Assembly (NCBI GenBank): GCA_963662545.2
Contig: CAXXLL010000002.1
Coordinates: 736,001-800,000, forward strand
Length of the DNA: 64,000 bases
Reading direction: 5' to 3'
DNA from: Gammaproteobacteria bacterium
GTDB lineage: Bacteria > Pseudomonadota > Gammaproteobacteria > Ga0077536
In this document: positions 6,534 through 30,720 of the stretch, piece after piece
Layout: each line of letters starts with the position of its first letter
How positions within the stretch are numbered: the stretch's first letter is position 1
Translations under genes and position numbers: made by a program
The notes under the pieces: generated by a model
Seen by the model: the letters and a program-made list of their open reading frames with translations, nothing else
What the model was told of the DNA's origin: nothing
Databases searched by the model: none

Positions 6534-6622
6534 ATGGGCCGGCCACTTTCCGCATTTCACTCCGCGTAGACGTGAATTCCGCTCGCCTCGTAGGGCGGAA
6601 TTGCTGGAGTATAAGAAAAACA

Positions 6623-8007: not shown

Positions 8008-8195
8008 GAAAAACAAGATGTCGGCTCGCGTCGGCTGTGCATCGCGCCGGTCGAGATGCTCGAGAATGCGTTGGATGACGGCGGGATCTTTGATGCGGGC
8101 AATGACTGCGGAGCACTGTACCTGTGTGTGTGGCCTCTAGAACTATTTTCACGGTCGGGTTGGGCCGGAAGCAAGCGTTCTAAAACTGGAGCTCC

Positions 8196-8262
8196 GAGGT
8201 CCGCGTGGGGTCGTCAGCGGTCTGATCGCGGCAGTGCAGCACTGCTAAGCGCTATGTCTGCA
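8196..8262. repeat. Hairpin repeat family A, copy 5 (3' truncated)
   Basis: gtccgcgtggggtcgtcagcggtctgatcgcggcagtgcagcac...tatgtctgca. Confidence 0.7.
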
Positions 8263-8348
8263 CCGAAATTATGCGTCACAATGACACGATTAATCGCGTC
8301 AATTTGACGACCATTTATCGTTAGGCGGAAGGGGATCACTCCGCGCTA

Positions 8349-8843
8349 TTGCTAGAAGAATGGGCGTTAATCGCAGAAATCGTCGCCGCTTTGGGGGTGA
8401 TTGCTTAGCTCATATATCCTGCGGTTCAAATGCGACTCACGCGCGTGGCTTCCGAAGCGCAGCTTTCGTATTTGTCTGTGGAAGTCTATTAACGTTGGCG
8501 TACGGCCCTGATGGATAATTCAGATCTCCCCCGCGCTATTGCGAAGGGCAATCGGGGAGACGCTCTATGCGACGATGAAGAAATTCAGATTCGCGCACTG
8601 ATGGATGAGCTGTTTATAGTTTCAGCTATTTCGCATAAGAGCACGATCCATTCGGACTCGCTCCACGATCGCTCGTTAGACATTGATTATGTAGTTGGTA
8701 TTCTTGAAAAGAATTCCGGATTAATATCGCAGTGGGCGAGATTTCGAAATTTTGCGGAGCTAATATCGCCAGAATATGGGCAATCCATAGATAGACGCTT
8801 AGATCAGATTGGAAACAATCGAGGGGACGATGGTGCCGCTTGA
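8349..8843 (+). pseudogene. Degraded cassette-type gene
   Basis: LEEWALIAEIVAALGVIA membrane N-terminus interrupted by stops; C-terminal ORF 8511-8843; preceded by GTTAGGC (8320) and followed by attC. Confidence 0.5.
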
Positions 8844-8867
8844 GTTCATATTTGAAGTGAAACATCC

Positions 8868-8966
8868 ACTTAACAGAATGTTGCAGCCGACCCCTGACCG
8901 CGAGTTCCCTTCGCTGCCGCTCCGATCGGTTGCATTAATGCGCGGCTGAGCTTAGCTTTGTGTGGC
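8868..8966 (+). repeat. attC-like site
   Basis: ACTTAAC...tgcagccgac...cccttcgctgccgctccgatcggttgc...gcgcggctgagctt; imperfect palindrome with degenerate right core. Confidence 0.65.
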
Positions 8967-9054
8967 ATAGTAAATCTGTGACGTCGCGTCCGCAATCGAA
9001 AGTAGTAATTCACAGAATGATAACGTCGCGCACTCCATTATTGACGAGGAGTAA

Positions 9055-9336
9055 TTGTTGATGACTAGTCCATTGACGGCAACCGTTTTGGGGTTAGCTC
9101 TAGCCATGACATCTGGTGTGAATGCATACGATCCGATGCCTGATCCGAGGATGTCGCCAAACCCGCCGGTAACCGGATCGACACAAAGCCGAAGCGAAAA
9201 TCCGGATGCTGACAGCGGCGAACACGATTCGCGTTTAAATGATCGTACCCGTCGTCATGGAGAGCCTGAATTCGGGTCAAGCGCCAGCCGTAGAAATGGG
9301 TACAATTATGGAAGCGGTGCCCGCAGCGGCAACTAG
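9055..9336 (+). CDS. Small secreted low-complexity protein
   Basis: Signal-peptide-like N-terminus; GAGGAG RBS. Confidence 0.5.
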   Translation: MLMTSPLTATVLGLALAMTSGVNAYDPMPDPRMSPNPPVTGSTQSRSENPDADSGEHDSRLNDRTRRHGEPEFGSSASRRNGYNYGSGARSGN

Positions 9337-9400
9337 CAACGAATTGTGTGACTCTCGCTGAAATAAACACGCATATATTCAAATCTGAAGTGCAACATCC

Positions 9401-9552
9401 GCCTGGCAATATATCGTAGCCGGCACTTGATCGCGCCCTTCCTTCGGTGCCACTGATGACTGCTGTGGGTCATCCGCGGAAGTCAAAGGCGAACGTTCCT
9501 CGCATCACAGGCGATCCGTCTGGAGCGACCGCTTTGGCTCTCATAGCAGTCT
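9401..9552 (+). repeat. Left half of attC (9401-9454) fused to a family A-type hairpin unit
   Basis: ccggcacttgatcgcgcccttccttcggtgccact then gatgactgctgtgggtc...; same junction position as 5218/5219. Confidence 0.6.
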
Positions 9553-9622
9553 TTCGCCGAGTCGGAAAAGTTGGAAGCGACCAGGGCTCTCCCCGAACCG
9601 CTTTCACAGACGCGACAGCGTT

Positions 9623-9933
9623 TTAGACTTCTGTCTGCTCAGCCATCTCAAGCGCGTCATCGACCTCGACCCGGATCTCCCTCTGCTCCGCAAGACGCCA
9701 GAATACTTTTCCCAATTCCCGGCGTATTTGACCAAATATCGCTTTCTTCCGGTACTTCGGAATGAACACGACGTGATACTTACACTTCCATCGGCTGTGC
9801 CTTAAACTCCCATCTAGTCTCATGATTGACTCCCTTTCGTGATGCTCTGGCGGCTCACGTCAGGGAGTCCGTCATGGGACTCCCGGAATTGTCAAACTTT
9901 TGCGGTCTCCCCAGCAGAGCTGGGGGGTTTACC
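9623..9933 (-). pseudogene. tnpA: IS200/IS605 tnpA (Y1 HUH) 5' remnant with end hairpin
   Basis: SLRHSRWKCKYHVVFIPKYRKKAIFG; truncated before HUH; ccccagcagagctgggg hairpin upstream. Confidence 0.85.
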
Positions 9934-10093
9934 AATCTGGGCTAAGGCGAAACAAATTATCCGACCATCACTTCCTTCGGAAAACGTGCACCGTAGGACA
10001 CCAAAGTATTTGGTAATGATCGGTTACTTATGACCCCCTTAGTAACTTGTCAGTACCTTACCGACCGCGACACCCAATCCAAGGGATCTTCAC

Positions 10094-12668
10094 GTGCCAT
10101 TGAGAGACTGTGCCCGCTACTGGTTCCTGCCTCGCATCCTCGCGCTACTTTTTGTATCGGCGGCGATCTCTGAGGCAGTGTCGGCGCAAACCGATGAATT
10201 AGATCAAGTCCGCAATCTGCTACTCGTTTCCGAAGCCACCTCGGTTGCCCGGGACCTGAGCGTTTCCGACGACATGTTCGATCAAATAGCGGCTGTCGCG
10301 GTGCTGGCCGACGTCGGTGATAAGGCGGCGATCGAGTTTCTCGCCGCTGGGCTTGAGTCTACGGATTTCCTCTACCAACGTGCTGTGGTCGACACACTAT
10401 TGAGTCTGCGCAGCGCAGACGGTGTCGAAGTCTTACGTCGCTATATGGAGGCCGCTGAGGACCTGGGCTTTTTGCGCTATCTGATGGAATCGCTTGCCTC
10501 CCATCCGCTCCCGGTAATGATAAGTTTTCTGGGTCTACGCGGAAACGTGTGGGTTGATATTGGCATTTCTGGGTAGTGGCGGAAGAAATGCCGCAATGAT
10601 TTTCAGTTTGAGGAATTCCTCATCACGATAGCCATAGGCGCGTCGTTGCAGGACCCGGATTTTGTTGTTGACCCCTTCGACCAATCCAAGACTGACTTTA
10701 TTCTTAGCATCACAATAGGAAGCAATGCCATCCCAATGGGATTCAATCAGCTCAGCAAACTTGCGATACGGCGCCAATCGCTGCCATTTCAGACTGTCCT
10801 TCCAGCGCTCGAAAAAGGCACGCGCGCCGCGCTCGGTACGGTAGTCCCAGAGTTGGCCGAAGGTTTCCTTGAGGACGTAGGCGGTGTTCAGACGCCGGTT
10901 GGCCTGGAGCAGTTTTTTCAGGGCTCGTCTGCCATCCAGATTCAGGTTCTCGCGTCGCGAGAGCAAGGTATATCGCTGGCCTTTGATGTAACTCCTGTCC
11001 TTGCCGCGGAGACGTTTGTATTCACGGCGCCGGACTTCATCGAGAGCCTTTGAGAGGTGGCGCATGATATGGAACTTGTCATAGATGATCCGCGCCTGCG
11101 GTGCGTTGTTCATGACCGAGTTACGGAACGGCTTCCACATGTCCATCGCCGCCAGTTCGATGCGAGCGCTCTTGTTCTCGCCCAATGCCTGGAAAAACAG
11201 GTCGATGTCAGCCTCTTTGCGACCTTCACCACCGACCCAGATAGGACGCCCCCGATCCAGGTCACTGACGATGACCCGGTAGTTATGTCCTTTGCGGATG
11301 GAGATCTCATCAATACCGATGGCCCGGGGTGCTGGCATGCCCGCCAGCTCAACCTGCTTTTGCATGTACAGCTTATCGAGGTCTTTCACCGTGCTGTGGT
11401 GCAGGCGTTCCCTCTCGGCGACAGCCTGGTTCGGCATGTCCCGGCACAGCTTGCCCACCTGCATGGCAAAGCGCTGCGTATAGCGAGGGTTCTTTGCCAG
11501 CCAGTCAAGATGTTCTACCTGCACGCCGCCGCACCTCCGGCAACTGACACGCCAGCGTTCGAACTCCAGGTAGATTCGCCATCCGGCAACTGACAGGTCT
11601 CGTACTCGCAGCACCTTCTTGTCGTAACGCCCGCGGCACCGGTGAGCACAGTGAGAACAGATCGCTGTTTTTTTCGCCTCTTGAGTTGGATCACACGGGC
11701 ATACCGATCACCAAACATGCCCACCAATTTCGATGCGGCGGTAAAACCAGGGAACGCAAACAGCGCTCGGATCGACTTGGGATTCTTCATGGCCTTAGCC
11801 TACCCACAAAATGAAACCACTTTCACCCCATACGAAATCTCTGAATGTCTACATGATTTCAATGGTTTACACTTGGTCTAATTCAGAATTTACCCACATG
11901 AATCCGCGTAGACCCAGTTTTCTTATAGAGGCGCTCGACCATTATGACCCAGTGGTTAAAAAGTTCGCCCTGCAATCGCTCTCTCAGTTACATTTTGAGA
12001 ACCACGACTCACGAATTCACCTACTGGCGAGCGATGCCGGAGAAATCGTGCAGGTGCGGGCATACGCCTGGAATGTATTACTGGATTCGCCACATCGGCG
12101 AGAGTCGATCGAACGCCTGCTGGAAATGTCTCGGCTTGGAAGTCCCGAAGCAAAGGAAGTCGTGGCAGTGGCGCTCGGCCGTGTTGACACACCACGAACT
12201 CGCGAAGCATTGGTTGAGTTGATGTCGAGTAACGACAACCGCGTAGCGCTTGCTGCGCTTACAAGTTCTGCCGGGTTGCGGGATGAGGCAGCAGCGCGTG
12301 AGCTCGAATGGACCATCGTTTACGGTGATGGACTTCATCGTGCTGCCGCGGCTGGCGGACTAAAGCGTATCGACCCGGCGGTCGCCTCGCGTGTTACCGA
12401 GAACCTAATGTCCTGTTACCTGCTTGGTCCGTTCACGGGGATGCGCCTTGTCGAAGCGTGGGCCATGATCGATGCCGACCCAAGCACCGTATATGGTTGG
12501 GGTTTGTCCCACGAAGACGAAGGAGTTCGCATGCAGAGCATTTGGTTAATAGGTCAACGTCGCGATGTAGAATACTTAGAACGAGTTGCTGCCTTCCTCC
12601 GCGATCCGAGTCCTGCCATCCGAGGCCTCGCGGCGTGGGCGGTGTTGCGCCTGGCTAGAGGGCCATAG
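10094..12668 (+). pseudogene. Secreted HEAT-repeat protein interrupted by ISL3
   Basis: Removing the IS and one target copy joins 10094-10530 to 11924-12668 in frame (MISF-LIEALD), 393 aa with HEAT-like repeats (VALGR, LRDPSPAIRGLAAWA). Confidence 0.85.
10531..11915 (-). mobile_element. ISL3-family IS, copy 2 (1385 bp)
   Basis: Same ends and same ORF translations as copy 1; 8-bp target duplication AGTTTTCT. Confidence 0.95.
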
Positions 12669-12764
12669 CTTATCTAGCCTGTTACCAAAACCCCTGTGAC
12701 GCTCCCGAATGGACCGATTGCTGGCGCTGGCGGCCTAACGCCCACACAAACCGCCATTGGCGTA

Positions 12765-12839
12765 AAAAGGGGCAAGCACTTATTTTTGTCCGTTCCTATA
12801 TCTTCAAAAGGCAAAGAGGAAATAAGTGCGTCGCCTTTT
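12765..12839. repeat. REP-like inverted pair
   Basis: aaaaggggcaagcacttattt ... aaataagtgcgtcgcctttt. Confidence 0.5.
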
Positions 12840-12862
12840 GGGTGCTGCCGCGAATACGTAAA

Positions 12863-12947
12863 GGGCCGCTATATTGGGTCCATAGCCGCCTCATCGCTAC
12901 AGTGCAGCACCGTTCCAAATCACGTCTGCAATGCGCTCGTAAGCGGT
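12863..12947. repeat. Hairpin repeat family A, copy 7
   Basis: gggtccatagccgcctcatcgctacagtgcagcac...cacgtctgcaatg...aagcggt. Confidence 0.7.
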
Positions 12948-13053
12948 TGTCGAATTGCTTCAAGCGTTAAGTCGAGAGGGTATGACGGTTTTCGGCCACA
13001 AGCAGTCCTTCGAAAATCGCCTGCCCAGCATCGGTACACGGTGAGAAAAAGGG

Positions 13054-13114
13054 AAAGGTGCCAGGTTTATTTAGAGCGGTTCGCTAACTACCAAAAATAA
13101 ACCTGATGCCCTTT
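13054..13114. repeat. REP-like inverted pair
   Basis: aaaggtgccaggtttattt ... aaataaacctgatgcccttt. Confidence 0.5.
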
Positions 13115-13137
13115 TCTCAAAACGAGGAAGTCATAAA

Positions 13138-13587
13138 ATGTCAGATAGGGATCAAATATTGAGTTTGCTAAACAAATACAGCCACACCGTAGATGGCGGT
13201 GACATAGATGGGTTTGTCGCGTTATTCGAAAAGGGCGAATGGTACGTCGAAGGCTCTACTCCGAATCGCGGTTCGAAGGAAATTTACGATAACGTCCTGT
13301 CGAAAGTCATTATTTACAAGTGCGGGACGCCCAGAACGAGGCACGTGAATACGAACATCGAATTGTCGATCGATGAAAGCGCGGGTACTGCAAAAGGTCA
13401 ACGTTACGTGACAGTCCTCCAACAAACGGATTCACTTCCTCTTCAACCGATATTTTCAGGGCACTATTTTGACGAGTTCGTTAAAGAAGATGGGAACTGG
13501 CGTTTCGCAAAGACAACCATCCATCGTCCCATGGTTGGCGATATGAGCCAACACCTCACGAATGATGAGTTTATTGACCCGAATTAG
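13138..13587 (+). CDS. SnoaL-like/NTF2 protein
   Basis: YSHTVDGGD, GTPRTRHVNTN, SGHYFDEFVKEDGNWRF. Confidence 0.85.
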   Translation: MSDRDQILSLLNKYSHTVDGGDIDGFVALFEKGEWYVEGSTPNRGSKEIYDNVLSKVIIYKCGTPRTRHVNTNIELSIDESAGTAKGQRYVTVLQQTDSLPLQPIFSGHYFDEFVKEDGNWRFAKTTIHRPMVGDMSQHLTNDEFIDPN

Positions 13588-13601
13588 CGAAAAATAAACG
13601 C

Positions 13602-13675
13602 GGCTAACAAACCAATGAGCCCGACGCTTGACCTGTCGGTGGCGAATTAGATGTTCAAGGGGTCTGACCCCTTGA
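13602..13675 (+). repeat. Shortened attC-like site followed by a GGGGTC-T-GACCCC palindrome
   Basis: GGCTAAC...ccgacgcttgacc...ATTAGAT; tcaaggggtc-t-gaccccttga at 13655-13675. Confidence 0.5.
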
Positions 13676-13719
13676 TTAGCAGCTCATCGTGCCGCGATGA
13701 ATTCTCCTGTATTGACGTC

Positions 13720-14313
13720 CTAGCTGGCCTTCTTGAGTAGGCTGCGGTTCATCTCGAGGTATTCGGGAGGGGGCTTGAGGCCGATCGCCTGTGCCATGCG
13801 GTTAGCGCTCGCGTAAAAACAGGCAGTCGAAGTGACGCTCCAGATGGCTTCGTCGTCGAAGCCTGCATCTCTCATCGTCTGACGGTCGTCGTCGTCGATG
13901 GATTCCGCGTGCTTCAACACCTTGACGACGTAATCGAGCATTGCACGGTGCCGCTGGGAGAGATCGGCGAGCGCGTAGTTTCTCGACAGGTACTCGGTAA
14001 ACATCGTATCCCCGGTTTTTTCGCGTAGCAAGGCGCCGTGATGCGTGGTGCAATAGAAACAACCGTTGGTCGCTGCGCACACCAGCGCGATCATTTCGTG
14101 TTCCAGCTCGCTGAGCCCTGAGTCCGCGCGAAGCACCTCTTTATACGAGGTCATGAATGCCCGCAAGCGCTGGTTGTCGGTCTTGAAGAACTTCAGGAAG
14201 TTGGGCATGAATCCGTAGTTCTTCTCGATGCCCTTGACCAGCGCGGTCATCTCTTCGTCGAGATTGTCGCGATCCTTGATATCGAGCGCATAGGGTCGTT
14301 CTTCGTTGGACAT
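13720..14313 (-). CDS. AhpD/CMD-family peroxidase-related enzyme
   Basis: GFMPN, EMIALVCAATNGCFYCTTHH (E-x-CxxC-xx-H motif). Confidence 0.88.
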   Translation of the reverse strand: MSNEERPYALDIKDRDNLDEEMTALVKGIEKNYGFMPNFLKFFKTDNQRLRAFMTSYKEVLRADSGLSELEHEMIALVCAATNGCFYCTTHHGALLREKTGDTMFTEYLSRNYALADLSQRHRAMLDYVVKVLKHAESIDDDDRQTMRDAGFDDEAIWSVTSTACFYASANRMAQAIGLKPPPEYLEMNRSLLKKAS

Positions 14314-14452
14314 GATTGAGCTCTCCTGGATCGGTGTGGTGGCCGGTTCGCGCCACGGGTATCTATCTGCAATGCTAATTCGCGCGCGCTCGCTGATCTA
14401 CTACTAGTGAGCCTGCCCGTGGCCGCCGCGCGGCAATCGGGACGGCAGCCCG

Positions 14453-14565
14453 CAACGAGGCCCGGTTCAGACGCATGGCGCTGGTCGCGCCCGCCGGTAT
14501 CCCCCCGCCGGAGGGCGACATCCTGGATATGTACGTGGGCCCTTCCGAGCGCTACCACAGGTGCG
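14453..14565 (+). pseudogene. Alpha/beta-hydrolase-like gene fragment
   Basis: Frame reads RFRRMALVAPAGIPPPEGDILDMY with no start context or remainder. Confidence 0.35.
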
Positions 14566-14629
14566 CAACCAGCACGGGGAACTCGTGATGGTGTTTACAC
14601 CCTTGCGTATGATCAAAGCCAGCGCTTAA

Positions 14630-14791
14630 GGGACCTCTGAATAAGTCATGGTGCGTCTGAATGGTTCATGCGATGGTCCAGATCAAGACACGAGTCGCCG
14701 GCCATAGTGGGGACTATGGGTAAGGTTCGTAACGTAAGGCTCCGCGATTTCATGGGCAAGGCAGATGGGCCATGACTTTTTCAGAGGTTCT
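14630..14791. mobile_element. 162-bp MITE (IS5-like ends), copy 1
   Basis: gggacctctgaataagtcatgg ... ccatgactttttcagaggttct flanked by TTAA on both sides; homologous to 54335 and 56607. Confidence 0.85.
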
Positions 14792-14938
14792 TTAAAGCAT
14801 CACCTGCTTGAGCGAGACTGGTCGTTGAATTTGCATCGGCGCCACCAAATCCCATTGGATAAATTCGCCAACGCCGTGCGCATCGCCCAGATGATCGGGA
14901 ATTTCCGTTTCTACGTTATTTCCCCCAATTTCGTCTGA

Positions 14939-15565
14939 TTACGCGCTCCGAGTGGTCTTCGGCGAGAAAAAGTAGGCGCCTGCGCCTAGCACGACCACCG
15001 CCAACACCCACTTCAGGGGTCCCCACCAGTTCACCACGCCCACCGAAAACGGAAATACCGAGACATATTCGCGGCCGGTACCGGGATCAACGGCACTCAA
15101 TACACCGATGAACGAACCGGCGGTGTCGAATTTCAAGCTCACGTCGAAATTCCCATTGGGGTAGCGCTGAGACGGGCGGTAAGCGACGGTAGCCGATTCG
15201 ATATCTTCGATCGAACCGAGATCGGTATAAGTGGCGGTAACCCCAATGTTGTTTACGTCACGTAGGATGCGAAAATCAACCGGCATGTCGCGCAATGCCT
15301 GGCTGACGAAATCGAGGACGATAATGGCATCGGCGACGACCGGAATATCTTCGCAAAATTCTTTTGCGCCCCTGACTTTCGGTTGATACCCAGTGAAATG
15401 GGCACGGTAGGGACCGATGCTCATAATGCACCGATCGTCCTCGATCGACACACCGCCGTGCGCATCACCGCGTGTCGGTGCGATCGCGAGTAAAACGAGG
15501 CAACCCAGCATCAAGCGCGAGATGAGTTTATGCGGGTTAGCCTCTAGGTTGGAATCATGCGGCAT
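14939..15565 (-). CDS. pmoD: PmoD/AmoD-family copper-binding accessory protein
   Basis: Signal peptide then HGGVSIEDDRC...HFTGYQP...EFCEDIP and a C-terminal TM anchor; directly downstream of the B subunit. Confidence 0.85.
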   Translation of the reverse strand: MPHDSNLEANPHKLISRLMLGCLVLLAIAPTRGDAHGGVSIEDDRCIMSIGPYRAHFTGYQPKVRGAKEFCEDIPVVADAIIVLDFVSQALRDMPVDFRILRDVNNIGVTATYTDLGSIEDIESATVAYRPSQRYPNGNFDVSLKFDTAGSFIGVLSAVDPGTGREYVSVFPFSVGVVNWWGPLKWVLAVVVLGAGAYFFSPKTTRSA

Positions 15566-15693
15566 ATTGCTGGTCGGCGTTTGCACGATGAGCCGGGGGG
15601 GCGCAGGAAAGCGCATGCCATAGCGATCTTTTGACAGCAACCGTAAAGCATTCCGAAGTCAGGCGCGCCAGCCCGATAATACCGAGGCACCGA

Positions 15694-16923
15694 TTACTCG
15701 AATACCGGAATCAGCGATCCAGCGACTTCGACAATTTCGCGACTGCCGTCGTCACCGTAGAAGAACAGCAACCCGGCGATGACGCTATCGGGATCGTTAA
15801 TCATGCGGGTCAGACGCTGGGTCTCCCATAAAGCATCTTCGGCAAACACCTCGACGCTTTTTGTTTCGCCGGGCGCAATGCCATCATTCACCACCCGCAG
15901 TCCCGCACTCGCGATCAAGTCATGTTCGTCTAACGGTGTGACCGTTCGCACAGCCGGATTGATAAATCGAATGTTTGCCGTCATGAACTCGCCGACGTAA
16001 AGGGTCGCCGGCCCGTTATTCATCACTAAAAGCTCCATTCTGAAGCTGCGGCCGGGAATACGGTAAGTGGCTTTCTCGACCTGCACGTTGACCTTAGATA
16101 CGGGATAAGGTTTGTCGGCCGGTATACTGATCTTAGACGTTCGCAGAGGAATGGTGACGGGAGCCGCGCGCTCGCCCCACATAAAACCCGCGACGATAAT
16201 CAACAACGTGACGGTAATAAACCCGACGGCAACCTTTACATCCCCGTCGGTAATCAGGTCGTCCCCGTCTCCGCCTTTATTCTCGGCTTCCGTTACCGCG
16301 CGAAGACGCGGAACGAGCAACGGACGCTGTCGCAGCCAATAAAAAAGCCACGCCCCGCCGATGACTATCCAAATCAAATGCCAAGCAGCAATCGTGCCCA
16401 GATTGAATCTTTCCAAATCGACTTCGCGCCCGAACATCGTCTCCACCTTGTTCTCGAAATCGTCAAACGAACCGCTTACCTCGACCCAGCGTCCAGGTCC
16501 GGCCAGGGTACCGGCATCCTTGACATTGAGCACCGGATGTACGTGGAAACGTCCCGGCTTGCGGGCCTTTAGTTCGATTGCGAAGCTATAATCCTTGCCC
16601 TGTTCGAGCGAGGTGGACTGCACGGCGCTGATGCCGTCGATATTGGACGATACCCGTACGAAATTCGGTCCCCCGGTCGACACGTTCAAGAATACCCGGT
16701 CCTCAACCGACGGGATCTGCTCCGGCCAATAGCTCGATACGCGTAGGCGTCCCTTAATCTTTACGACTTCTCCAATCGCAACCGTGGGCGGCCCAATTTT
16801 AACGTCATACCAGTTGATGGTGCGCATGCGGGTGGTGGCCTGCATCGCGCGCTCACCGTGCGCGAGCCCCTCCAGCGGCACAAAAACCAGCAAGAACAAC
16901 AGTGCTGCTGCTCGGATCAACAT
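15694..16923 (-). CDS. pmoB: Copper membrane monooxygenase subunit B (PmoB/AmoB family)
   Basis: Signal peptide then HGERAMQATTRMRTINWYD; GRFHVHP (CuB His ligands); ATYRIPGRS; WETQRL...DPDS..AGLLFF. Confidence 0.95.
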   Translation of the reverse strand: MLIRAAALLFLLVFVPLEGLAHGERAMQATTRMRTINWYDVKIGPPTVAIGEVVKIKGRLRVSSYWPEQIPSVEDRVFLNVSTGGPNFVRVSSNIDGISAVQSTSLEQGKDYSFAIELKARKPGRFHVHPVLNVKDAGTLAGPGRWVEVSGSFDDFENKVETMFGREVDLERFNLGTIAAWHLIWIVIGGAWLFYWLRQRPLLVPRLRAVTEAENKGGDGDDLITDGDVKVAVGFITVTLLIIVAGFMWGERAAPVTIPLRTSKISIPADKPYPVSKVNVQVEKATYRIPGRSFRMELLVMNNGPATLYVGEFMTANIRFINPAVRTVTPLDEHDLIASAGLRVVNDGIAPGETKSVEVFAEDALWETQRLTRMINDPDSVIAGLLFFYGDDGSREIVEVAGSLIPVFE

Positions 16924-16955
16924 ATGCCAACCAAGTTAAGACAGTTATTACGGAT

Positions 16956-17690
16956 TCAGGCTTTCGTTATCCAGGTCTGCCTGTTAAGGATCGATCCGAA
17001 CGCCCACGACACATAAAAGACCAAGGTGCAGACGAAACCCGCGAAGACGGCCGTGAGCGGCGTGACCGCATCACCGAAAGTCCGCAATACTGATCGCTCC
17101 ACCAGGCGAATATATTCCGGTAAGCCGGTACGAATATATTCGTAACCGAGAAGGTCTGCCGTCGTCAGCATTTCCCCGTTGTAGTTGATGGGTTCATGGA
17201 AGGCGGCCAGCAACGGCCAGTTAACCGGGTAGACCAACAGCCCCCACAGAAACGCACCCGAGAGGCCGGTCAGGAAGACACTGCGCGTAATAAGCAGCGA
17301 GCAATCGATGAGGATGGCGAGCGGAATGAAGATTGACGGCCAGACAAAGCTCATCGGGTAGCCGGCGAACAGGTGGAAATTCAGGTAGACGCTGAACCAA
17401 CGCATGATCGTGTAGAGCAGCACAACGCCCGTGCAGCCGATGGGCAGCCTGAATCGGGACCAAAATGCAGCGGCGAGCCCGGCGGGAAAGACGAGCAGGG
17501 CCGCTACCGGTAACAGGGGCCAGAAGCGCCGGTCTTTCCAGTCGACCCAGAACTCCCAATCGCCGATCGTCACCGACATGACGAAAACCGTCGCACCCGC
17601 GACGGCAAACAGAATCACGGCGAACAACGCCAGATCGACGTTGCTCTCGAGGTATTCGGTGATTCTGGAACGCTCAGCTACCGTAGCCAC
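16956..17690 (-). CDS. pmoA: Copper membrane monooxygenase subunit A (PmoA/AmoA family)
   Basis: GDWEFWVDWKDRRFWP, FRLPIG, YPVNWP, ADLLGYEYIRTGLPEYIRLVER..LRTFG. Confidence 0.95.
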   Translation of the reverse strand: MATVAERSRITEYLESNVDLALFAVILFAVAGATVFVMSVTIGDWEFWVDWKDRRFWPLLPVAALLVFPAGLAAAFWSRFRLPIGCTGVVLLYTIMRWFSVYLNFHLFAGYPMSFVWPSIFIPLAILIDCSLLITRSVFLTGLSGAFLWGLLVYPVNWPLLAAFHEPINYNGEMLTTADLLGYEYIRTGLPEYIRLVERSVLRTFGDAVTPLTAVFAGFVCTLVFYVSWAFGSILNRQTWITKA

Positions 17691-17751
17691 AAAAGCCTTT
17701 TACCTCTCGATTCGCGCGTCTGGCGCCGGTCCCGGATACGGCCGACAGAAA

Positions 17752-18534
17752 TCAGGTCTTCGCAACGACCTCGTCGATCAATTCAGTCATGCGCGAGACG
17801 ACGTGTATCACCACGCCACCGAGACCCAGTAATGCGAGCCCCAAGATGGAAAAGCCCCAGTGAATCGACGCATTGAACGTTTCTTCGGCATAGAAGAAAG
17901 TATGGCCCCACTCGTTGTATCCGACGGTCGGCATGATCAGGATCGGGCCGCCGATAGCTATGACCAGCGCGAGCAAGTGCTTTTTATTGTGCATTGGCAG
18001 GCGTGTCTTCGCATACACAAACGACCCGACGCCCGTGATGATCAATGCCGGGATGAGAAGGTAGAAAAGTTCAATATGCGTCGGCGTGAAATCCGTGTCG
18101 CGAATCACCACCTGGTGCCACGCGGCGTCGCTCTCGGCGCCCATCACGCCCGTGATGAACACCACCAGGGTGTATGACGCGAGCCAGGTTATCCACTTGA
18201 AGTATCGGGACAGCTCGATTTCGGGTGTGACCGTATCCCAAGCCCGTTCTCGCGTTTGCCACAAATAGAGCACCACGCCGATCAAAACCACCACGGCGAT
18301 GCCGATCTGGGCGTATAACAACCGCATCCAGTAGACGGCGAATTCGGGTTCGAAATAATCGAGCCCGACCGAGAACGCGTAATTGTGCAGGTAGACGCGG
18401 TAGGCGAAATAGCCCAAGGCGATGCCTGCAATCACCTTGATATATGCGCCCCAGCGAATGACCACAGGGGCGGTCGCGTGCTCGCGGGTCACCGCGTGTT
18501 GATCAGAATCGATGGCGCCGGCAGTTACACTCAT
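17752..18534 (-). CDS. pmoC: Copper membrane monooxygenase subunit C (PmoC/AmoC family)
   Basis: GLDYFEPEF; ESDAAWHQ..IRDTDFTPTH (CuC D/H/H); NEWGHTF..EE.F...IHWGF (CuD N/H/H); AGGAG RBS. Confidence 0.95.
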   Translation of the reverse strand: MSVTAGAIDSDQHAVTREHATAPVVIRWGAYIKVIAGIALGYFAYRVYLHNYAFSVGLDYFEPEFAVYWMRLLYAQIGIAVVVLIGVVLYLWQTRERAWDTVTPEIELSRYFKWITWLASYTLVVFITGVMGAESDAAWHQVVIRDTDFTPTHIELFYLLIPALIITGVGSFVYAKTRLPMHNKKHLLALVIAIGGPILIMPTVGYNEWGHTFFYAEETFNASIHWGFSILGLALLGLGGVVIHVVSRMTELIDEVVAKT

Positions 18535-18799
18535 GATACTGGCTCCTGGTGCGGCATTGGCGGGGGCAATTTAATGATAATCTACTCAATATAATTGTGT
18601 GACAAGTATACGCACCAAACGGGCCGCAGAGCCAGATACTCAGGAGCGAAGGCTTGTTAATGTCATTGAGATACTAAACCGGACCGAACGCGCCGATTGC
18701 GGATAGCTCCGGCGCTGGTGATGCCTTTGGGTTCGATATGTTCTCGAGTGGGCGGGCGCGATCCCGCGCTCTGGGAATGGCGGGGTCCGCGTTTCGGCG

Positions 18800-19065
18800 C
18801 GCACACGAAATTCCTCACCGCCGGACGCTTTCCGACCGAGGCCTTGCTCAGGGTCGAGCGTGAAAATGCGATGCTGAGCCTGGAAGATGCTCATTGGCGT
18901 TTAGCCGCGCTGCCCGCGCAACTTGCCGGCGTGGCCGAGCGGGGCGTGCTGAACACCGGCGCGCCGGCCGACATCATCGTCTACGACTTGGAAAACCCGG
19001 CGATACTTCCCGCTGAAGTGGTGCACGATTTGTCCGGCGGGGAGTGGCGCCGGATCGCCGCGTAA
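18800..19065 (+). pseudogene. C-terminal fragment of an N-acyl-D-amino-acid deacylase-like gene
   Basis: VERENAMLSLEDAHWRL...RGVL..GAPADIIVYD...DLSGGEWRR resembles the C-terminus of 19947-21653. Confidence 0.65.
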
Positions 19066-19122
19066 GATCTCCGGGGCGGTCTCACTCGGGTGCTGATTTT
19101 CTGGTGAAACGGACAACGCATT

Positions 19123-19923
19123 ATGGACTTGGAACTCAATGATAAATCGGTGATCGTTACCGGTGGCGCGTCCAATATCGGGCGGGCGATCGTGCTGGCG
19201 TTTGCTCGTGAAGGCGCGCGGATCACGGTGGGCGACATCGACGTCGAGCAGGCGGAACGGGTCGCGGAAGTCGCGCGGCGGCAAGGCGCCGCAGAGATAA
19301 TAGTGCTTGAGACCGACATCACTGATCTGCAGCAGGTGAAGTCGATGACCAAGGCAGCGGAAGATCGCTACGGTTGTATCGATATTTTGGTCAACAATGT
19401 CGGCTGGGATCAGCTCATGTTTTTTTCGCAGACAACACCGGAGTTCTGGGAAAAGGTGATCCGCATCAACTACGTCGGCAACCTGAACTGCACCCACACC
19501 GTGCTCGGTATCATGCTCGAGAATAAAACGCCGGGCGCTATCGTCTCTCTGAGCTCGGACGCCGGTCGGCAGGGAGAGCCGCGCGAAGCGGTGTACGGCG
19601 GTATCAAGGCCGGAATTAACGCCTTTATGAAAACCCTCGCTAAAGAAAATGGCCGCTATGGGATCCGCTGCAATACGGTTTGTCCCGGTGTGACGGTTCC
19701 GGAGGACGACGAGGAGGTCGGCGCGACCAGCATGTGGACCGACAAGACGTCATTATTTACCCCAGACCAACTCGAGGCCGTTGCCCGGGCAATGCCGCTG
19801 AAAAAACTGGGGCGGGCGCGAGACGTGGCCAACGCAGTGCTTTTTCTTGCCTCTAACTCAGCCGCGGGTCATATAACGGGCCAGGTGCTGAGCGTCAGTG
19901 GCGGCTATAGTATGGTGGGTTAG
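19123..19923 (+). CDS. SDR oxidoreductase (BadH-like)
   Basis: TGGASNIG, NNVGWD, SSDAGR, YGGIK. Confidence 0.9.
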   Translation: MDLELNDKSVIVTGGASNIGRAIVLAFAREGARITVGDIDVEQAERVAEVARRQGAAEIIVLETDITDLQQVKSMTKAAEDRYGCIDILVNNVGWDQLMFFSQTTPEFWEKVIRINYVGNLNCTHTVLGIMLENKTPGAIVSLSSDAGRQGEPREAVYGGIKAGINAFMKTLAKENGRYGIRCNTVCPGVTVPEDDEEVGATSMWTDKTSLFTPDQLEAVARAMPLKKLGRARDVANAVLFLASNSAAGHITGQVLSVSGGYSMVG

Positions 19924-19946: not shown

Positions 19947-21653
19947 ATGATGAATAATCACTATGACCTGAAGATCGTCAATGCGCAGATCGCCGATGGC
20001 TCGGGCGGGCCGCTGTTCGGCGGCGACATTGGTATTCGCGACGGTCTGCTGACTGACGTTGGTGCGGCGCCGGGTGACGCATCTGAAACGATCGATGCCG
20101 CAGGCCACGTCGTTGCACCGGGTTTCGTCGATATTCATACGCACTACGATGCCCAGATCCTATGGGATCGAATGTTGACGATCTCCCCGTGGCATGGCGT
20201 CACTACGGTGGTGATGGGCAATTGCGGTTTCAGCGTTGCCCCGACGCGTCCAGCGCATCGCGACATGATGATCCGTACCCTGGAAAACGTTGAGGGCATG
20301 ACCGCCAGTGCGCTGCAAGCGGGACTCGGCGAAGACTGGCCGTTCGAGACTTTCCCCGAGTATCTCGACGTGATCGAATCACGCGGCATCGCGATCAACG
20401 TGGGCGCGATGATCGGACATACCGCATTGCGTACCTATGTCATGGGCGAGGAAGCGACAGAGCGCGAAGCGACGACCGCTGAGATCGACCATATGCGCGC
20501 GCTGGTCGACGAGGCGATGACAGCCGGTGCGCTCGGTTTCGCCACGTCGAAGGCCATTACCCATGTCGGCTACCAGGGTAAGCCGGTACCCAGCCGGGCG
20601 GCTTCGTTCGATGAGATCCGAAGCCTCGCGGCTGTCCTGCGCGACACCGGCCGCAGTGGCGTGATTCAGGCGACCGTTGGACCGACTCTTTCCTATGACG
20701 AATTCTCGGAACTCAATGAAGTTTCGGGATGCACGGTCACTTGGACCGCGCTGCTCGCCGGCGCCGCGATCCATGAAGGCACCGCCAGCGAACAGTTACG
20801 TCATTCCGAGGCCTTGATCGCGCGGGGCTATGACGTCGTTCCCCAGGTGACGCCGCGGCCGTTGAATTTCGAGTTTCAGCTCAAGGCGCCTTTTGTGCTC
20901 GAGGCGATGCGATTGTTCCGTCCGGTATCCGAAGCGGACCATGAGGGTAAGAAGCGACTCTACGCCGACCCCGCGTTCCGCGCCAAGGTGTGGGAGAAGC
21001 TCGACGGGCGCATACCCTGGACGTTCAAAAACGGCTTCCGGGGAACGGTCATATCGGAGGTGCCGGGAAAACCGGAGCTCGGTGAACGCGGCCTGTTTGA
21101 ATTGGCGCAAGAGCGCGGCGTGACGCCGGTCGAATTGTTGTTCGATCTCGGTCTTGAATCCGATCTGGAAGCGCGCTTCCGCATGCCGGTAGCCAATCAC
21201 GACGAGGACGAGGTCGAAGAGCTGTTGCTGAGCACCGATACCGTGATCGGTCTTTCCGATGCCGGCGCCCACGCCAGCCAACTCTGCGACGCGTGTCTGA
21301 CGACTTATCTTTTCCGCCGCTGGGTGCGCGAGAAACAGGTGATCAAACTGGAAGAGGCGGTGCGGATGGTAACCTCAAGGCCGGCCGAGGTGTTCGGCAT
21401 TCACGATCGCGGGCGATTGCTGGCCGGCTTCGCGGGCGATGTCGTGATCTTTGATCCCGATACCATCGGCGATGAGCCGCTACGGCGCGTTTGGGATTTT
21501 CCCGGCGGCGCCGATCGCCTGGTATCCAGCGCCCTCGGCATCGATGCCGTCATCGTCAACGGCAAGGTCCTGCGGCGGCATAACCAGGATTGCGTTGATG
21601 TCGATGGCCCGCTGCCGGGACGCCTGCTGAGAAATGGCCGGGCAAGGTCATGA
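19947..21653 (+). CDS. N-acyl-D-amino-acid deacylase family amidohydrolase
   Basis: PGFVDIHTHYDAQ, WHGVTTVVMGNCG, SDAGAH. Confidence 0.92.
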   Translation: MMNNHYDLKIVNAQIADGSGGPLFGGDIGIRDGLLTDVGAAPGDASETIDAAGHVVAPGFVDIHTHYDAQILWDRMLTISPWHGVTTVVMGNCGFSVAPTRPAHRDMMIRTLENVEGMTASALQAGLGEDWPFETFPEYLDVIESRGIAINVGAMIGHTALRTYVMGEEATEREATTAEIDHMRALVDEAMTAGALGFATSKAITHVGYQGKPVPSRAASFDEIRSLAAVLRDTGRSGVIQATVGPTLSYDEFSELNEVSGCTVTWTALLAGAAIHEGTASEQLRHSEALIARGYDVVPQVTPRPLNFEFQLKAPFVLEAMRLFRPVSEADHEGKKRLYADPAFRAKVWEKLDGRIPWTFKNGFRGTVISEVPGKPELGERGLFELAQERGVTPVELLFDLGLESDLEARFRMPVANHDEDEVEELLLSTDTVIGLSDAGAHASQLCDACLTTYLFRRWVREKQVIKLEEAVRMVTSRPAEVFGIHDRGRLLAGFAGDVVIFDPDTIGDEPLRRVWDFPGGADRLVSSALGIDAVIVNGKVLRRHNQDCVDVDGPLPGRLLRNGRARS

Positions 21654-21690: not shown

Positions 21691-22812
21691 ATGTTGAAAC
21701 CCATCATTTCCGCGGACAGCCATGTCAGCGAACCGCCTAACTGCTACGTGGATTTCATCGATATAAAATTCAAAGCACGCGCGCCACGGCTGGAACATGA
21801 TGCAAAGCGCGGCGATATATTCAGGATCGAGGGCAGCAAGCAGCCGATCCCGATGTCCCTTGTCTCTGCGGCCGGTAAGGCGCCGGAGGAACTGTCGGCC
21901 AGGGGCGCGCGCTTCGAAAAGCTCCACCGGGGCGGTTGGGAGCCTCATGCGCGGATCAGGGATCAGGAAACCGACGGCATTGCGGCGGAAGTCATCTATC
22001 CGTCGGTGGGCATGGAGCTCTGCAATATACCCGACATTGATTTAAAGCAGGCCTGTATGGAAGCCTACAATCGCTGGTTGGTCGAATTTTGCGCCCCCTA
22101 TCCCCATCGGCTGATCGGGCTCGGGCAGTGCGCGGTGCGCACACCTGCCGATGGCATCAAGGAACTCGAGGCGATCAAGAAGCTTGGGTTCAAAGGCGTG
22201 ATGCTACCGGGATTGCCGGCGCGCGAAGACTACGCCCATGAGATGTACGGCGAATTCTTTGATGCGGTGATCGAACTCGAATTAGTGCCGAGTTTCCACA
22301 TTCTCACTTCGGGCGAGGCTTTGTTGCAAGGTTTTCGCGGTTCGAAAATCAACTCTTTCATGGCCGTGGTGCGCGGCAACCAGGAGCTGATGAGCATGTT
22401 TGTCTTCGACGGCATTTTCATGCGGCACCCCAATCTTAAAATCGTTTCGGTCGAGGCCGACGGCGGCTGGATCCCGCATTACATGTATCGCATGGACCAC
22501 GCCTATGAGCGGCACCGCCACTGGATGCGCGGCAGGGAACTCGACAGGCGTCCCAGCGAATACTTCCGCGAGCATATCTACTTTACGTTCCAGGACGATC
22601 ACACCGCATTTCAATTCAAGGATTACGTCAATATAGAGCGCATGATGTGGGCGAACGACTTTCCCCACTCGGATTCGACCTGGCCTTGGTCGCAGCAACT
22701 ATTGAAAAAGGAATTGGCACACATGACGGAGGCCGAGAAGAACCTGATCCTGCACGAGAACGTCGCGAAGCTATACCAACTCGATACCTCAGCACTGCGA
22801 GCGGCGGCGTAA
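21691..22812 (+). CDS. Amidohydrolase_2 family protein
   Basis: ISADSHVSEP, AYNRWL, MWANDFPHSDSTWP. Confidence 0.9.
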   Translation: MLKPIISADSHVSEPPNCYVDFIDIKFKARAPRLEHDAKRGDIFRIEGSKQPIPMSLVSAAGKAPEELSARGARFEKLHRGGWEPHARIRDQETDGIAAEVIYPSVGMELCNIPDIDLKQACMEAYNRWLVEFCAPYPHRLIGLGQCAVRTPADGIKELEAIKKLGFKGVMLPGLPAREDYAHEMYGEFFDAVIELELVPSFHILTSGEALLQGFRGSKINSFMAVVRGNQELMSMFVFDGIFMRHPNLKIVSVEADGGWIPHYMYRMDHAYERHRHWMRGRELDRRPSEYFREHIYFTFQDDHTAFQFKDYVNIERMMWANDFPHSDSTWPWSQQLLKKELAHMTEAEKNLILHENVAKLYQLDTSALRAAA

Positions 22813-22858
22813 AGTCTCCATCGCGCTGCATTGGATTTTGAAAGAGAGGCGAGGGAAG

Positions 22859-23503
22859 ATGGCCAAACCGGTATTACGTAACCGTCAGTGTGAGGATCTG
22901 GGTATCGAATATCCGATTTTTCTCCCCGGGATGGCGGGGCGGGGCGATCCGACGCCGCCGGAAATGGTCGCCGCCGAATCGGAGGCGGGGGGTATGGGCG
23001 TACTCGGTACGTCCGGGTTCGAACCCGACGAGATCCGCCGCCGCATACGCGAAGTGCGTAAATTGACCGACAAACCGTTCGGGGTCGATTGCTTGTTACC
23101 CGTCCGGCACGTCGATGCCGCGCCGACCCGGTCGGGGGTCCGTGAACAGATCAAGAAGGAGTATCCCGCGCACGCCCAAGGCACCAAGCTCATGGGGATT
23201 GCCGGCAACGTGCGTCATGCCCACCGCCAAATTGCGGCGGGGACCGATATCGTGATCGCCGCCGGTCATGAAGGCGGCGGCCATGTCGGGCCGATTGGTA
23301 CCTTTCCACTGATACCGCAAATCGTGGATGCGATCGCGCCAGCGCCGGTGGCGGCGGCCGGCGGGATCGGGGACAGCCGCGGCGTCGCGGCGGCGTTAGC
23401 GTTGGGGGCGCAGGCCATTTGGGTCGGAACCGCCTTTCTCGTTGCCGATGAATGTGCCATCCCCGATGCCCGCTCATTATTGAAACGTTTTCGCGCCGAG
23501 TAA
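22859..23503 (+). pseudogene. Nitronate monooxygenase family gene, internally deleted and 3' truncated
   Basis: GIEYPIF..GM, KPFGVD, GHEGGGH, AAGGIGD, WVGTAFL motifs, but only about 215 aa and running into the convergent gene. Confidence 0.75.
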
Positions 23504-24004
23504 TCGCTGCGAAAACAATACACCTGTAGCAAGGTTCTCACTGAAGGCGATATTGGCCATCGACGCGACTGTCGGACGCACGTCGAGGGGAGCATCAACT
23601 GTTGCAAGCTTTACGCCAAGCGCTTCCAGCACGGGCGCGATTGCACGACCCATCGGGACCTGCCAGGGATTACCCTCGCCCTCTTCGCCTCTCATCGTGA
23701 TCAACAGCAACAATGGAAATTCGCACGCCCGCGCTATTGAGGCGATAGCATTGACGCAGTTGCCGACGCCGCTGGATTGCATCAGCAAGGCGCCGCGCTC
23801 GCCGCCCAGCCACGCGCCTGCCAGTAAACCGATACCTTCCTCTTCGCTCGCCAGTGGTACCGCACGCATATCGCCGTCGGCAATGCACAATTCAAGCAGG
23901 CGTTTGTGACCGGCATCGGGTACATAGACGATCTGGCGAACGTACAATTGCTTGAGTACGTCGTGAATATCCGCAGGCCAATCGATTGAATCGCTGGCGC
24001 TCAA
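23477..24004 (-). CDS. TPP-dependent decarboxylase alpha subunit (sulfopyruvate/phosphonopyruvate decarboxylase type)
   Basis: YVPDAGH, EEEGIGLLAGAWLGG, MQSSGVGN, NPWQVPMG. Confidence 0.85.
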   Translation of the reverse strand: MSASDSIDWPADIHDVLKQLYVRQIVYVPDAGHKRLLELCIADGDMRAVPLASEEEGIGLLAGAWLGGERGALLMQSSGVGNCVNAIASIARACEFPLLLLITMRGEEGEGNPWQVPMGRAIAPVLEALGVKLATVDAPLDVRPTVASMANIAFSENLATGVLFSQRLLGAKTFQ

Positions 24005-24131
24005 TAAGCTCCGTCCCGAAGAGACATGGATTTATTTCGGGCCAGCGTAACATTTTCGAAACCTGCATCACTCTGATCGTTTAAACTAGTCGATTCATGA
24101 ACCTAAGCTCTTGCGCGAGTGAATTTATCCG

Positions 24132-28148: not shown

Positions 28149-28328
28149 GGCTCCATAGCAGGATATTGTCATCGCGCTAGCAGACAATAATTACGCCGCG
28201 CGATGCAGTTGTCACGCGCTACAATAATGGAGAGCGGATAATTCTACGGACGGACGAAGATAGACAATACGACAACGACCACTTGATGTGCTTTGAGCAA
28301 GGCGGTGAATTGGACTGCAACAGAGTAG

Positions 28329-30711: not shown

Positions 30712-30720
30712 ACTCGGAAA

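Follow-up and report, generated by a model that had tools for sequence, protein, structure and literature searches.

Copper membrane monooxygenases (CuMMOs) govern the entry of methane, ammonia and short alkanes into oxidation pathways. To our knowledge, sequence does not yet reveal which substrates they accept, and the donors that supply them with electrons and copper in the cell have yet to be established. Here we describe a four-gene CuMMO operon, xmoC-xmoA-xmoB-xmoD, in a 64,000-nucleotide stretch of gammaproteobacterial DNA (contig CAXXLL010000002.1; this whole stretch is referred to as the window). Its placement in a deep CuMMO clade without a characterised member is strongly supported by sequence comparison, and we propose that it probably encodes a working monooxygenase whose substrate, to be hydroxylated, is neither methane nor ammonia but another organic compound.

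Among the closest described systems, the Nitrosococcus-type amoCABD operon and the solved ammonia monooxygenases (AMOs; 9pxf, 9leg and 9cl6) are reported with the same C-A-B-D order, a PmoD/AmoD-family gene after B and the same copper ligands. They differ from the window operon in the reported motifs of the in-operon AmoD and AmoE, Cx8MH and Cx7MxH, where the window XmoD carries Cx9HxnC, and in the CuD loop, which reads FWFM in AMO and FFYA in XmoC; moreover, domain scans show no hydroxylamine oxidoreductase gene (hao) adjoining the window operon. The solved particulate methane monooxygenases (pMMOs) of M. capsulatus Bath (3rgb/1yew), Methylotuvimicrobium (6cxh/7s4l) and Methylocystis (4phz) have the same subunit architecture and ligands, whereas XmoA is 43–48% identical to named PmoA sequences and the domain scan shows no methanol dehydrogenase in the window context. 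In Pxm, represented here by the Methylomagnum plasmid locus L018, the order is A-B-C and not the C-A-B of the window, a distinction from pxmABC that the original prediction had already drawn and that this reference bears out; L018 also falls outside the window clade.

The hydrocarbon CuMMOs, namely Cycloclasticus pHMO, the betaproteobacterial alkane CuMMO and the actinobacterial hydrocarbon monooxygenase (HMO), have in common with the window the CAB order and a heterotrophic, hydrocarbon-degrading context, and we consider this type the most likely functional class of the window operon. The kinship is nevertheless distant: XmoA is 41–45% identical to Cycloclasticus and at most 40% to Methylibium and Burkholderiaceae sequences, all of which lie outside the window clade. 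The actinobacterial HMO operons, among them that on a Mycolicibacterium chubuense NBB4 plasmid (L017), are followed by small hypothetical genes, with no PmoD homologue among those tested. Heterologous expression of a mycobacterial HMO is reported (cited in PMC13058606).

Two further systems can be likened to the window through their descriptions. The Porticoccaceae 'B045' CuMMO, which a preprint (10.1101/2022.11.07.515388) describes as monophyletic outside the other proteobacterial amo/pmo sequences and as carried by marine hydrocarbon-degrading Gammaproteobacteria, holds a similarly deep position to that of the window clade, and the B045 clade may be the same clade, its sister or an unrelated one. 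The verrucomicrobial PmoCAB3, for which acetone oxidation is reported with an adjacent pmoD (PMC8630023), is likewise a divergent CuMMO with a pmoD among catabolic genes, but belongs to another phylum, and its reported GMC oxidoreductase and lactate dehydrogenase neighbours are not seen in the window. Other non-C1 substrates reported for CuMMOs are butane or ethylene (PMC6215863); methylcycloalkanes are proposed, not shown, in the preprint on B045.

The operon and its copper sites

The four genes of the operon are as follows.

xmoC, 17752..18534, minus strand: 260 aa from ATG; membrane subunit with the CuC and CuD sites
xmoA, 16956..17690, minus strand: 244 aa from GTG; membrane subunit
xmoB, 15694..16923, minus strand: 409 aa from ATG; signal peptide, periplasmic cupredoxin domains and CuB ligands
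xmoD, 14939..15640, minus strand: 233 aa from TTG; PmoD/AmoD-family copper protein, predicted to be periplasmic and anchored in the membrane

Along xmoC-xmoA-xmoB-xmoD the intergenic gaps are 61, 32 and 53 nt, and the genes together hold 1146 codons without stops or frameshifts. The original prediction had described four co-oriented, uninterrupted genes in C-A-B-D order, and both the open reading frames (ORFs) and the family matches agree. An AGGAG stands 8–9 nt 5′ of the xmoC ATG, and the true start of xmoD is probably ATG 15616 (225 aa) or ATG 15565 (208 aa). XmoC, XmoA and XmoB match the CuMMO models of Pfam (PF04896, AmoC, E 2.7e-71; PF02461, AMO, 6e-71; PF04744, Monooxygenase_B, 1.1e-126), all far above the gathering score, so that the operon holds the adjacent, co-oriented C, A and B homologues by which a CuMMO is recognised. 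A second or orphan xmo copy was looked for within the window and none was found.

The GC content, GC3 and codon usage of the operon lie inside the window background, with a codon-frequency correlation of 0.862 against 0.735–0.927 for single background genes. Recent horizontal acquisition of the operon was considered and rejected, there being no compositional signal of it; a blastn search of the operon against plasmids gave zero matches.

The NCBIfam models that fit best are named for ammonia monooxygenase (the AMO equivalogs NF041641, NF041557 and NF041640). XmoB exceeds the AmoB_BACT cut-off (482.8 bits against 336), while XmoC and XmoA stay below those of AmoC_BACT (264.1 against 319) and AmoA_BACT (251.9 against 290). 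None of the pMMO/AMO models TIGR03078, TIGR03080 and TIGR03079 is reached (223.9 < 280.6, 225.2 < 318.15 and 380.8 < 394.9), and XmoC and XmoA thus miss both sets of equivalog cut-offs, in line with the divergence claimed for the operon. Among solved chains, XmoC is matched best by 9pxf_G (AMO subunit C, 5.5e-55) and 7s4l_C (pMMO subunit C, 1.3e-54), XmoA by 6cxh_B (PmoA, 3.1e-59) and XmoB by 3rgb_A (7.1e-102). For XmoA, the AmoA chains of AMO reach 7.9e-47 or weaker, and its scores are 185–204 bits against solved PmoA chains and 162–163 bits against solved AmoA chains. Taken over all three subunits, XmoCAB stands at much the same distance from solved pMMO as from solved AMO chains.

These matches bear directly on the possibility that the operon encodes an AMO, converting ammonia to hydroxylamine in heterotrophic nitrification or as a side activity, from an amoCABD-type operon. 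Such a function would be consistent with the names of the best NCBIfam models, the XmoB score, the top solved match of XmoC and the C-A-B-D order reported for Nitrosococcus (PMC13058606, PMC6189053), and a multicopper oxidase (MCO) that accompanies the operon in related loci (see below) has its nearest counterparts in two-domain MCOs such as 3g5w_A. Yet XmoC and XmoA fall short of the equivalog cut-offs, XmoA fits PmoA better than AmoA, domain scans of 73 window ORFs and 117 neighbour ORFs in related loci hold no hao-like multihaem domain, and the surroundings are those of organic catabolism. We regard ammonia oxidation as the function of this operon as quite unlikely.

The copper sites themselves are retained throughout. 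In XmoB, the CuB ligands are H22 and H127-V-H129; the HxH pairs with the HxH of PmoB, and H22 aligns to residue 1 of mature PmoB chains, where the mature chain 11ll_Aa also begins. Alignment of XmoC to solved AMO and pMMO chains gives D136/H140/H153 for CuC and N207/H211/H225 for CuD, which corresponds to the two His plus Asp of CuC and two His plus Asn of CuD described in a 2026 review (PMC13058606). Each of the nine ligands is conserved in the full set of 17 clade sequences (17/17) as well as the three reference operons (3/3), so that the CuB, CuC and CuD motifs that had been read from the letters hold at nine of nine positions.

The clade has a CuD-loop signature of its own. Over the CuD loop (XmoC residues 207–225; window 18160–18206), compared in the columns of loci L001–L019, the clade has the signature H-T-F-F-Y-A-E-E-x-F-x-A-x-x-H, whereas the solved pMMO and AMO chains shown there have H-T/A-F-W-F-M-E-E. 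The actinobacterial HMO references carry F-F at the same positions as the clade. According to the review that describes the ligand sets (PMC13058606), the CuD loop may tune specificity, and we consider the clade signature a candidate determinant of substrate range.

The fourth gene product, XmoD, is matched by no Pfam or NCBIfam model. Its kinship appears on comparison with the solved PmoD of Methylocystis sp. Rockwell (6CPD): XmoD alone matches 6cpd_A at 4e-13, and a profile of 17 clade XmoD sequences does so at 4.5e-15 over chain residues 4–128 of 128, and hence across the crystallised domain. The PmoD family is described as defined by a signal peptide, two invariant cysteines and a C-terminal helix (Fisher et al., PMC6189053). 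In each of the 17 clade sequences, XmoD has exactly two cysteines at a spacing of 24, a histidine ten residues past the first of them, and a hydrophobic C-terminus of 19 residues (mean Kyte-Doolittle value 1.28–2.30) that we read as a membrane helix. The mature N-terminus, HGGV, is likewise invariant (17/17), and a hydrophobic leader followed by the invariant A|HGG junction points to a signal peptide.

Within the PmoD family, a CuA centre is reported to be formed only by the Cx7MxHxnC class (Cys41, Met49, His51), which is found predominantly within pmo and amo operons; the tested representative of the Cx9HxnC class binds copper and gives no CuA spectra (PMC6189053). At the XmoD position matching Met49, all 17 sequences have Arg, Lys or Asp instead; the motif is therefore Cx9HxnC, that of the non-CuA class. 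XmoD is by these motifs a member of the PmoD family outside its CuA-forming subclass. Its mature N-terminal histidine is, we presume, comparable to the histidine brace that binds copper in PmoB, CopC and LPMOs. The closest homologue of XmoD, P0413, is 98% identical and 225 aa long and belongs to a cluster of 19 members. Of 2246 candidates, 2004 clusters of XmoD-type proteins fall at E <= 0.001; among the matches listed, those bearing names are all 'hypothetical', and no Pfam or NCBIfam model covers them.

Placement among copper membrane monooxygenases

Homologues of XmoA were sought in a collection of 5.8 billion proteins. The closest, P0001, is 97% identical, comes from a metagenome-assembled genome (MAG) labelled Proteobacteria and belongs to a 13-member cluster. 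Below it come thirty clusters at 65–83% identity and ten at 56–60%, and the remaining matches, two partial ones excepted, are at or below 54%; outside the clade, no identity exceeds that value. To named sequences of Cycloclasticus, Methylocystis, Methylocapsa, Methylomirabilota/NC10, Stellaceae, Binatia, Methylibium and Burkholderiaceae, XmoA is 36–51% (also given as 36–48%) identical. A search of cluster representatives with XmoB gave 282 clusters at E <= 0.001, the best full-length representative being 43% identical; compared with plasmid-borne sequences, XmoB is 37% identical to Methylomagnum PxmB and 25–31% (25.3–30.5%) to actinobacterial HmoB.

The trees give the same picture. In a quick XmoA tree of 73 rows the window falls in a 38-row clade (support 99, branch 0.57), and in a careful tree of 53 rows it falls in a 26-row clade (100/100, branch 0.54) that stands apart from Cycloclasticus, Methylocystis, Methylocapsa, NC10, Binatia, Pxm, the betaproteobacterial rows and the actinobacterial outgroup. 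The original prediction had called the lineage divergent and had suggested a tree of concatenated C, A and B subunits as a check. In such a tree, built from 20 rows and 914 columns, the window joins L001, L002 and L003 at 100/100, apart from Pxm and from actinobacterial HMO, which here and in the careful XmoA tree forms the outgroup on branches of 0.75–2.9; the highest concatenated identity to the window is 75% (L002). With respect to the references placed, the trees and the identities agree that the window does not nest inside a characterised clade.

The same evidence bears on whether the operon encodes the pMMO of a gammaproteobacterium so far not recognised as a methanotroph. XmoB and XmoA find their best solved matches among pMMO chains, and the MAG UBA981 (L003, with 79% XmoA identity to the window) has been termed a 'putatively methanotrophic gammaproteobacterium' (10.1101/531582). 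That remark, as it appears in the source, is based on a tree of soluble di-iron monooxygenases and not of CuMMOs, and the clade separates from labelled Methylocystis, Methylocapsa and NC10 pMMO at 100/100. The three TIGR cut-offs are all missed, and domain scans of the window and of the neighbours in 16 related loci find no pyrroloquinoline quinone (PQQ)-dependent methanol dehydrogenase or C1-transfer domains. We therefore hold a methane-oxidising role to be very unlikely.

The clade members that bear organism names are all MAGs from uncultured bacteria, in 16 of 16 genome loci and in all named cluster members. Their labels are mostly Gammaproteobacteria, Proteobacteria or Pseudomonadota, with single instances of Alphaproteobacteria, Rhodospirillales, Enterobacteriaceae and Moraxellaceae; the sister-group clusters too carry MAG labels only (Gammaproteobacteria, Moraxellaceae). 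The C-A-B-D order is kept in all 16 related loci. The clade is already in public databases as automatically annotated MAG genes, which lowers its novelty. In the literature searched, to which subscription journals and bioRxiv supplements did not belong, we found no paper on the function of the clade or on an xmoCABD-MCO-cupredoxin arrangement.

One related chromosome, OZ244144.1 (a MAG chromosome of 5.8 Mb), holds two full operons, L002 at about 1.77 Mb and L004 at about 2.76 Mb. They come from different subclades, with XmoA 80% and 69% identical to that of the window, and are paralogues. The presence of operons from two subclades on one chromosome suggests functional differentiation between the copies, and the paralogues may differ in substrate or affinity.

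Accessory genes, rearrangement and selection

The window operon is shorter than most of its relatives. Two more co-directional genes, for a multicopper oxidase and a small cupredoxin-like protein, come after xmoD in 13 of 16 related loci and bring the operon there to six genes (L002, where 12754–15014 covers the two extra genes, L003–L012, L015 and L016). Of the other three loci, two are on contigs that end directly past xmoD and the third has a different ORF there. The MCO of the relatives is 556–596 aa long and is made up of Cu-oxidase_3 and Cu-oxidase_2 domains; its HxH/HCH motifs are invariant, and among solved structures it comes nearest to the two-domain MCO 3g5w_A (2.7e-32), presumably a Nitrosomonas protein. 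The second extra gene encodes a secreted protein of 192–230 aa whose N-terminus is rich in His and in which the pattern H...C-x4-H-M is conserved; neither Pfam nor NCBIfam has a model that matches it, the PDB gave nothing significant, and by its pattern it looks like a small cupredoxin. In addition, six of the 16 loci have a divergent TetR-like gene 5′ of xmoC, and a seventh has a weak match.

None of this is found in the window. A tblastn search of the window at E <= 1e-3 with the relatives' MCO, cupredoxin (ORF6), TetR-like protein and acyl-CoA ligase returned nothing, and profile hidden Markov models run against all six-frame pieces of the window gave nothing better than E 1.9 for the accessory genes. 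The claim that the operon is intact accordingly stands for its four genes and does not stand for the two further copper-protein genes of 13 of the 16 relatives. Because L002 and L003 have both MCO and cupredoxin and the window is nested among them, the absence is most simply explained by secondary loss. The edges of the operon are as follows.

Spacer after xmoD, 14314..14938: 625 nt, non-coding, where relatives carry the MCO and cupredoxin genes
Amidohydro_3 C-terminal remnant, 18670..19062, plus strand: directly upstream of xmoC; rearrangement junction at the 5′ edge of the operon
Sigma-70-like hexamer pairs, 18574..18605, minus strand: 40–70 nt upstream of xmoC; possible promoter on weak evidence

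The amidohydrolase remnant covers profile positions 399–457 of 472 only (E 3.2e-05 to 3.8e-05) and matches residues 440–528 of an intact paralogue at 19947–21653 (BLASTP E 9e-10). Together, this stump at the 5′ edge and the absence of the accessory genes place the operon in a rearranged locus. The first same-strand gene past the operon, at 13720–14313, encodes an AhpD-like 'peroxidase-related enzyme' (TIGR01926, 152.8 bits against a cut-off of 81.8); it adjoins the operon in none of the 16 related loci.

A rearranged, shortened operon raises the question of whether the gene set is a relic en route to decay, cut from its six-gene context and useless, in which no disabling mutation has so far arisen. 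The missing MCO, cupredoxin and TetR-like genes argue for such a fate; as L002 and L003, the nearest relatives that can be assessed, have the MCO and cupredoxin, the loss of these two is taken to be derived. The truncated amidohydrolase abutting xmoC, the at least six broken genes and three insertion sequence (IS) copies or fragments within the 64 kb, and a promoter signal at chance level point the same way. On the other hand, 1146 codons have stayed free of stops and frameshifts amid broken neighbours, with nine ligands and both PmoD cysteines kept. Proteins 97–98% identical to those of the window occur on other contigs (P0001, 13 members; P0413, 19 members), so that the four-gene form, or at least these alleles, persist in a population, and the Nitrosococcus amoCABD operon is described in the literature as working without an in-operon MCO.

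Substitution patterns also speak against decay. Between the window and L001–L003, pN is 0.12–0.26 and pS 0.66–0.78; the ratio of nonsynonymous to synonymous substitution rates (dN/dS) between the window and its nearest DNA relatives is at most about 0.05–0.16, an upper bound with dS saturated, and among close relatives it is 0.017–0.10. As a proxy for recent decay we counted private substitutions, that is, changes at positions where every other clade sequence agrees. There are 0, 1, 2 and 2 of them in C, A, B and D of the window, and other ingroup rows have 0–7, so that they are no commoner here than in relatives. The original prediction had held the operon to be probably still under selection and had proposed dN/dS as a measure of it; the low bound and the lack of an excess of private substitutions uphold that view. 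Long-term purifying selection on the operon is clear from these comparisons and, with no excess of private substitutions, makes it most likely that the gene set is a working monooxygenase. We consider a decaying relic unlikely.

The breakage around the operon, which the original prediction had also remarked on, is extensive, with at least six neighbouring genes broken, the amidohydrolase among them.

LysR gene, 53800–54342 and 54443–55009: split over two frames by a frameshift beside the catechol-cleavage cluster at 52567–56606
NMO gene, 22748–23500: truncated, with its profile ending at 237 of 331; deletion junction near 23500
TPP_enzyme_N-only fragment, 23480–24031: abuts the truncated NMO gene
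IS200-type transposase fragment, 9626–9859: between the two ISL3 copies
ISL3 copies, 6617–8014 and 10520–11926: matching inverted repeats; identical over the 300 nt shown
HEAT-repeat gene, 10046–10573 and 11799–12665: interrupted by one ISL3 copy
CoxG/CoxE fusion, 35051–35920: partial

Mobilisation of the operon by the ISL3 pair was considered and rejected, as the copies do not flank the xmo genes; against plasmids, the ISL3 element has partial matches only (66–67%). Downstream of the operon there is also a 52-nt direct repeat in three copies (5233–5284, 8211–8262 and 12879–12930) that are 67–100% identical to the reference copy. Elsewhere in the window, a patatin-like phospholipase at 27213–28148 matches the PADLOC 'Effector: Phospholipase' models (3.5e-67) and a PHROG with function unassigned (1.2e-91). 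Beside it, at 28000–34300, is a stretch of low GC content (0.48 against about 0.57) with nine ORFs that have no Pfam, PADLOC or PHROGs family; the phospholipase and this stretch may form a defence or mobile island. An Rfam search and a tRNA scan of the window gave zero matches and no tRNA, respectively, the window yielded no taxonomic marker, and a terminator scan around the operon gave nothing above the shuffled expectation.

Substrate, proposed mechanism and significance

The window carries Rieske oxygenases, acyl-CoA dehydrogenases, short-chain dehydrogenases/reductases and a catechol cleavage cluster, in keeping with the heterotrophic catabolic neighbourhood originally proposed. Domain scans covered 190 ORFs, namely 73 window ORFs of at least 90 aa and 117 neighbour ORFs in the 16 related loci. 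Hao-type, PQQ-dehydrogenase and tetrahydromethanopterin (H4MPT) domains were absent from the Pfam scans of the 73 window ORFs, for which no dedicated search was made, and no haem-HAO, PQQ-dehydrogenase or C1-transfer domain occurs among the 117 neighbour ORFs. At the level of an ORF domain scan rather than a dedicated search, this agrees with the original statement that no hao, mxa, xox or formaldehyde genes occur in the 64 kb.

The neighbours of related operons are also of a catabolic kind. Six of the 16 loci have a convergent acyl-CoA ligase 3′ of the operon and three have an alpha/beta hydrolase there, and the neighbours of L002 include an epoxide hydrolase, an HpaB-type oxygenase, an AlkB-like desaturase and a Rieske oxygenase. 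In L005, a 548-aa FMO-like flavin monooxygenase of the Baeyer-Villiger type is encoded at 8246–9892, between xmoC and xmoA; in L007, a second Baeyer-Villiger-type monooxygenase (9905–11557) lies near the operon, together with a P450 (202–1419). Baeyer-Villiger neighbours hint that the steps after the CuMMO may involve ketones or esters.

We propose an organic substrate because of this catabolic context in the window and its relatives, the lack of hao and methanol-dehydrogenase domains in the 190 ORFs, and the CuD loop of the clade. By analogy with solved pMMO and AMO, XmoC, XmoA and XmoB would assemble in the inner membrane. The copper of XmoC, at CuC, CuD or both, would activate O2, with CuB in the periplasmic domain of XmoB, and a single oxygen atom would be inserted into a C–H bond of a small hydrophobic substrate. 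Short or cyclic alkanes, alkenes and ketones are candidates for the preferred substrate, and the alcohol or ketone product would pass to dehydrogenases and beta-oxidation-type enzymes. XmoD is expected to bind copper without a CuA centre and could aid in copper supply or electron delivery. In the window lineage, the operon has been rearranged and, by the simplest account, has lost its MCO and cupredoxin genes as well as a TetR-like regulator.

Several points weigh against this proposal. The window copy is without the accessory copper proteins and the regulator of its relatives, and, since dS is saturated, a recent relaxation of selection is not measurable from the DNA. The 4 promoter-like sites in 13500–19200 compare with 3.2 +/- 1.6 in shuffles, which is chance level. 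The best NCBIfam matches are named ammonia monooxygenase, with XmoB above the AmoB_BACT cut-off, and the best solved match of XmoC is the AMO chain 9pxf_G. Neighbour associations are sparse, and the acyl-CoA ligase in six loci represents one or two independent events because those loci are close kin. The evidence on the substrate class is indirect, and the view of the host is limited to 64 kb. Lastly, the trees were built without labelled ammonia oxidisers, gammaproteobacterial methanotrophs, Haliea/Halioglobus, ET-HIRO, Solimonas, SAR324, Verrucomicrobia or Porticoccaceae B045, and membership in those groups is excluded only indirectly, via the identities of at most 54% outside the clade. On balance we still favour a working CuMMO acting on an organic compound. 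The original prediction of such an enzyme is thus supported by clade placement and context, with the substrate itself still a proposal.

A bolder version, which we offer as a tentative possibility, is that the clade is a distinct functional class of CuMMO in widespread, uncultured heterotrophic Gammaproteobacteria, specialised on an organic substrate that is neither methane nor ammonia, in which most members combine the monooxygenase with a module of MCO, His-rich cupredoxin and non-CuA PmoD, and of which the window is a minimal form. If this is true, the substrates might be, for example, cyclic or branched alkanes or ketones that are processed by a Baeyer-Villiger, esterase and CoA-ligase route, and the MCO-cupredoxin module could be what delivers electrons or copper to CuMMOs, a system that has long been sought. 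In that case the window is a natural minimal version in which XmoCAB and XmoD suffice without the module.

The six-gene form of the relatives, with its MCO and cupredoxin, presents a testable candidate for a CuMMO partner system, and the four-gene form of the window offers a natural control. If the clade oxidises organic compounds, it would represent an unrecognised sink for volatile hydrocarbons or ketones. Marker-gene surveys would then need to include the clade, whose genes would otherwise be mislabelled as amoA or pmoA.

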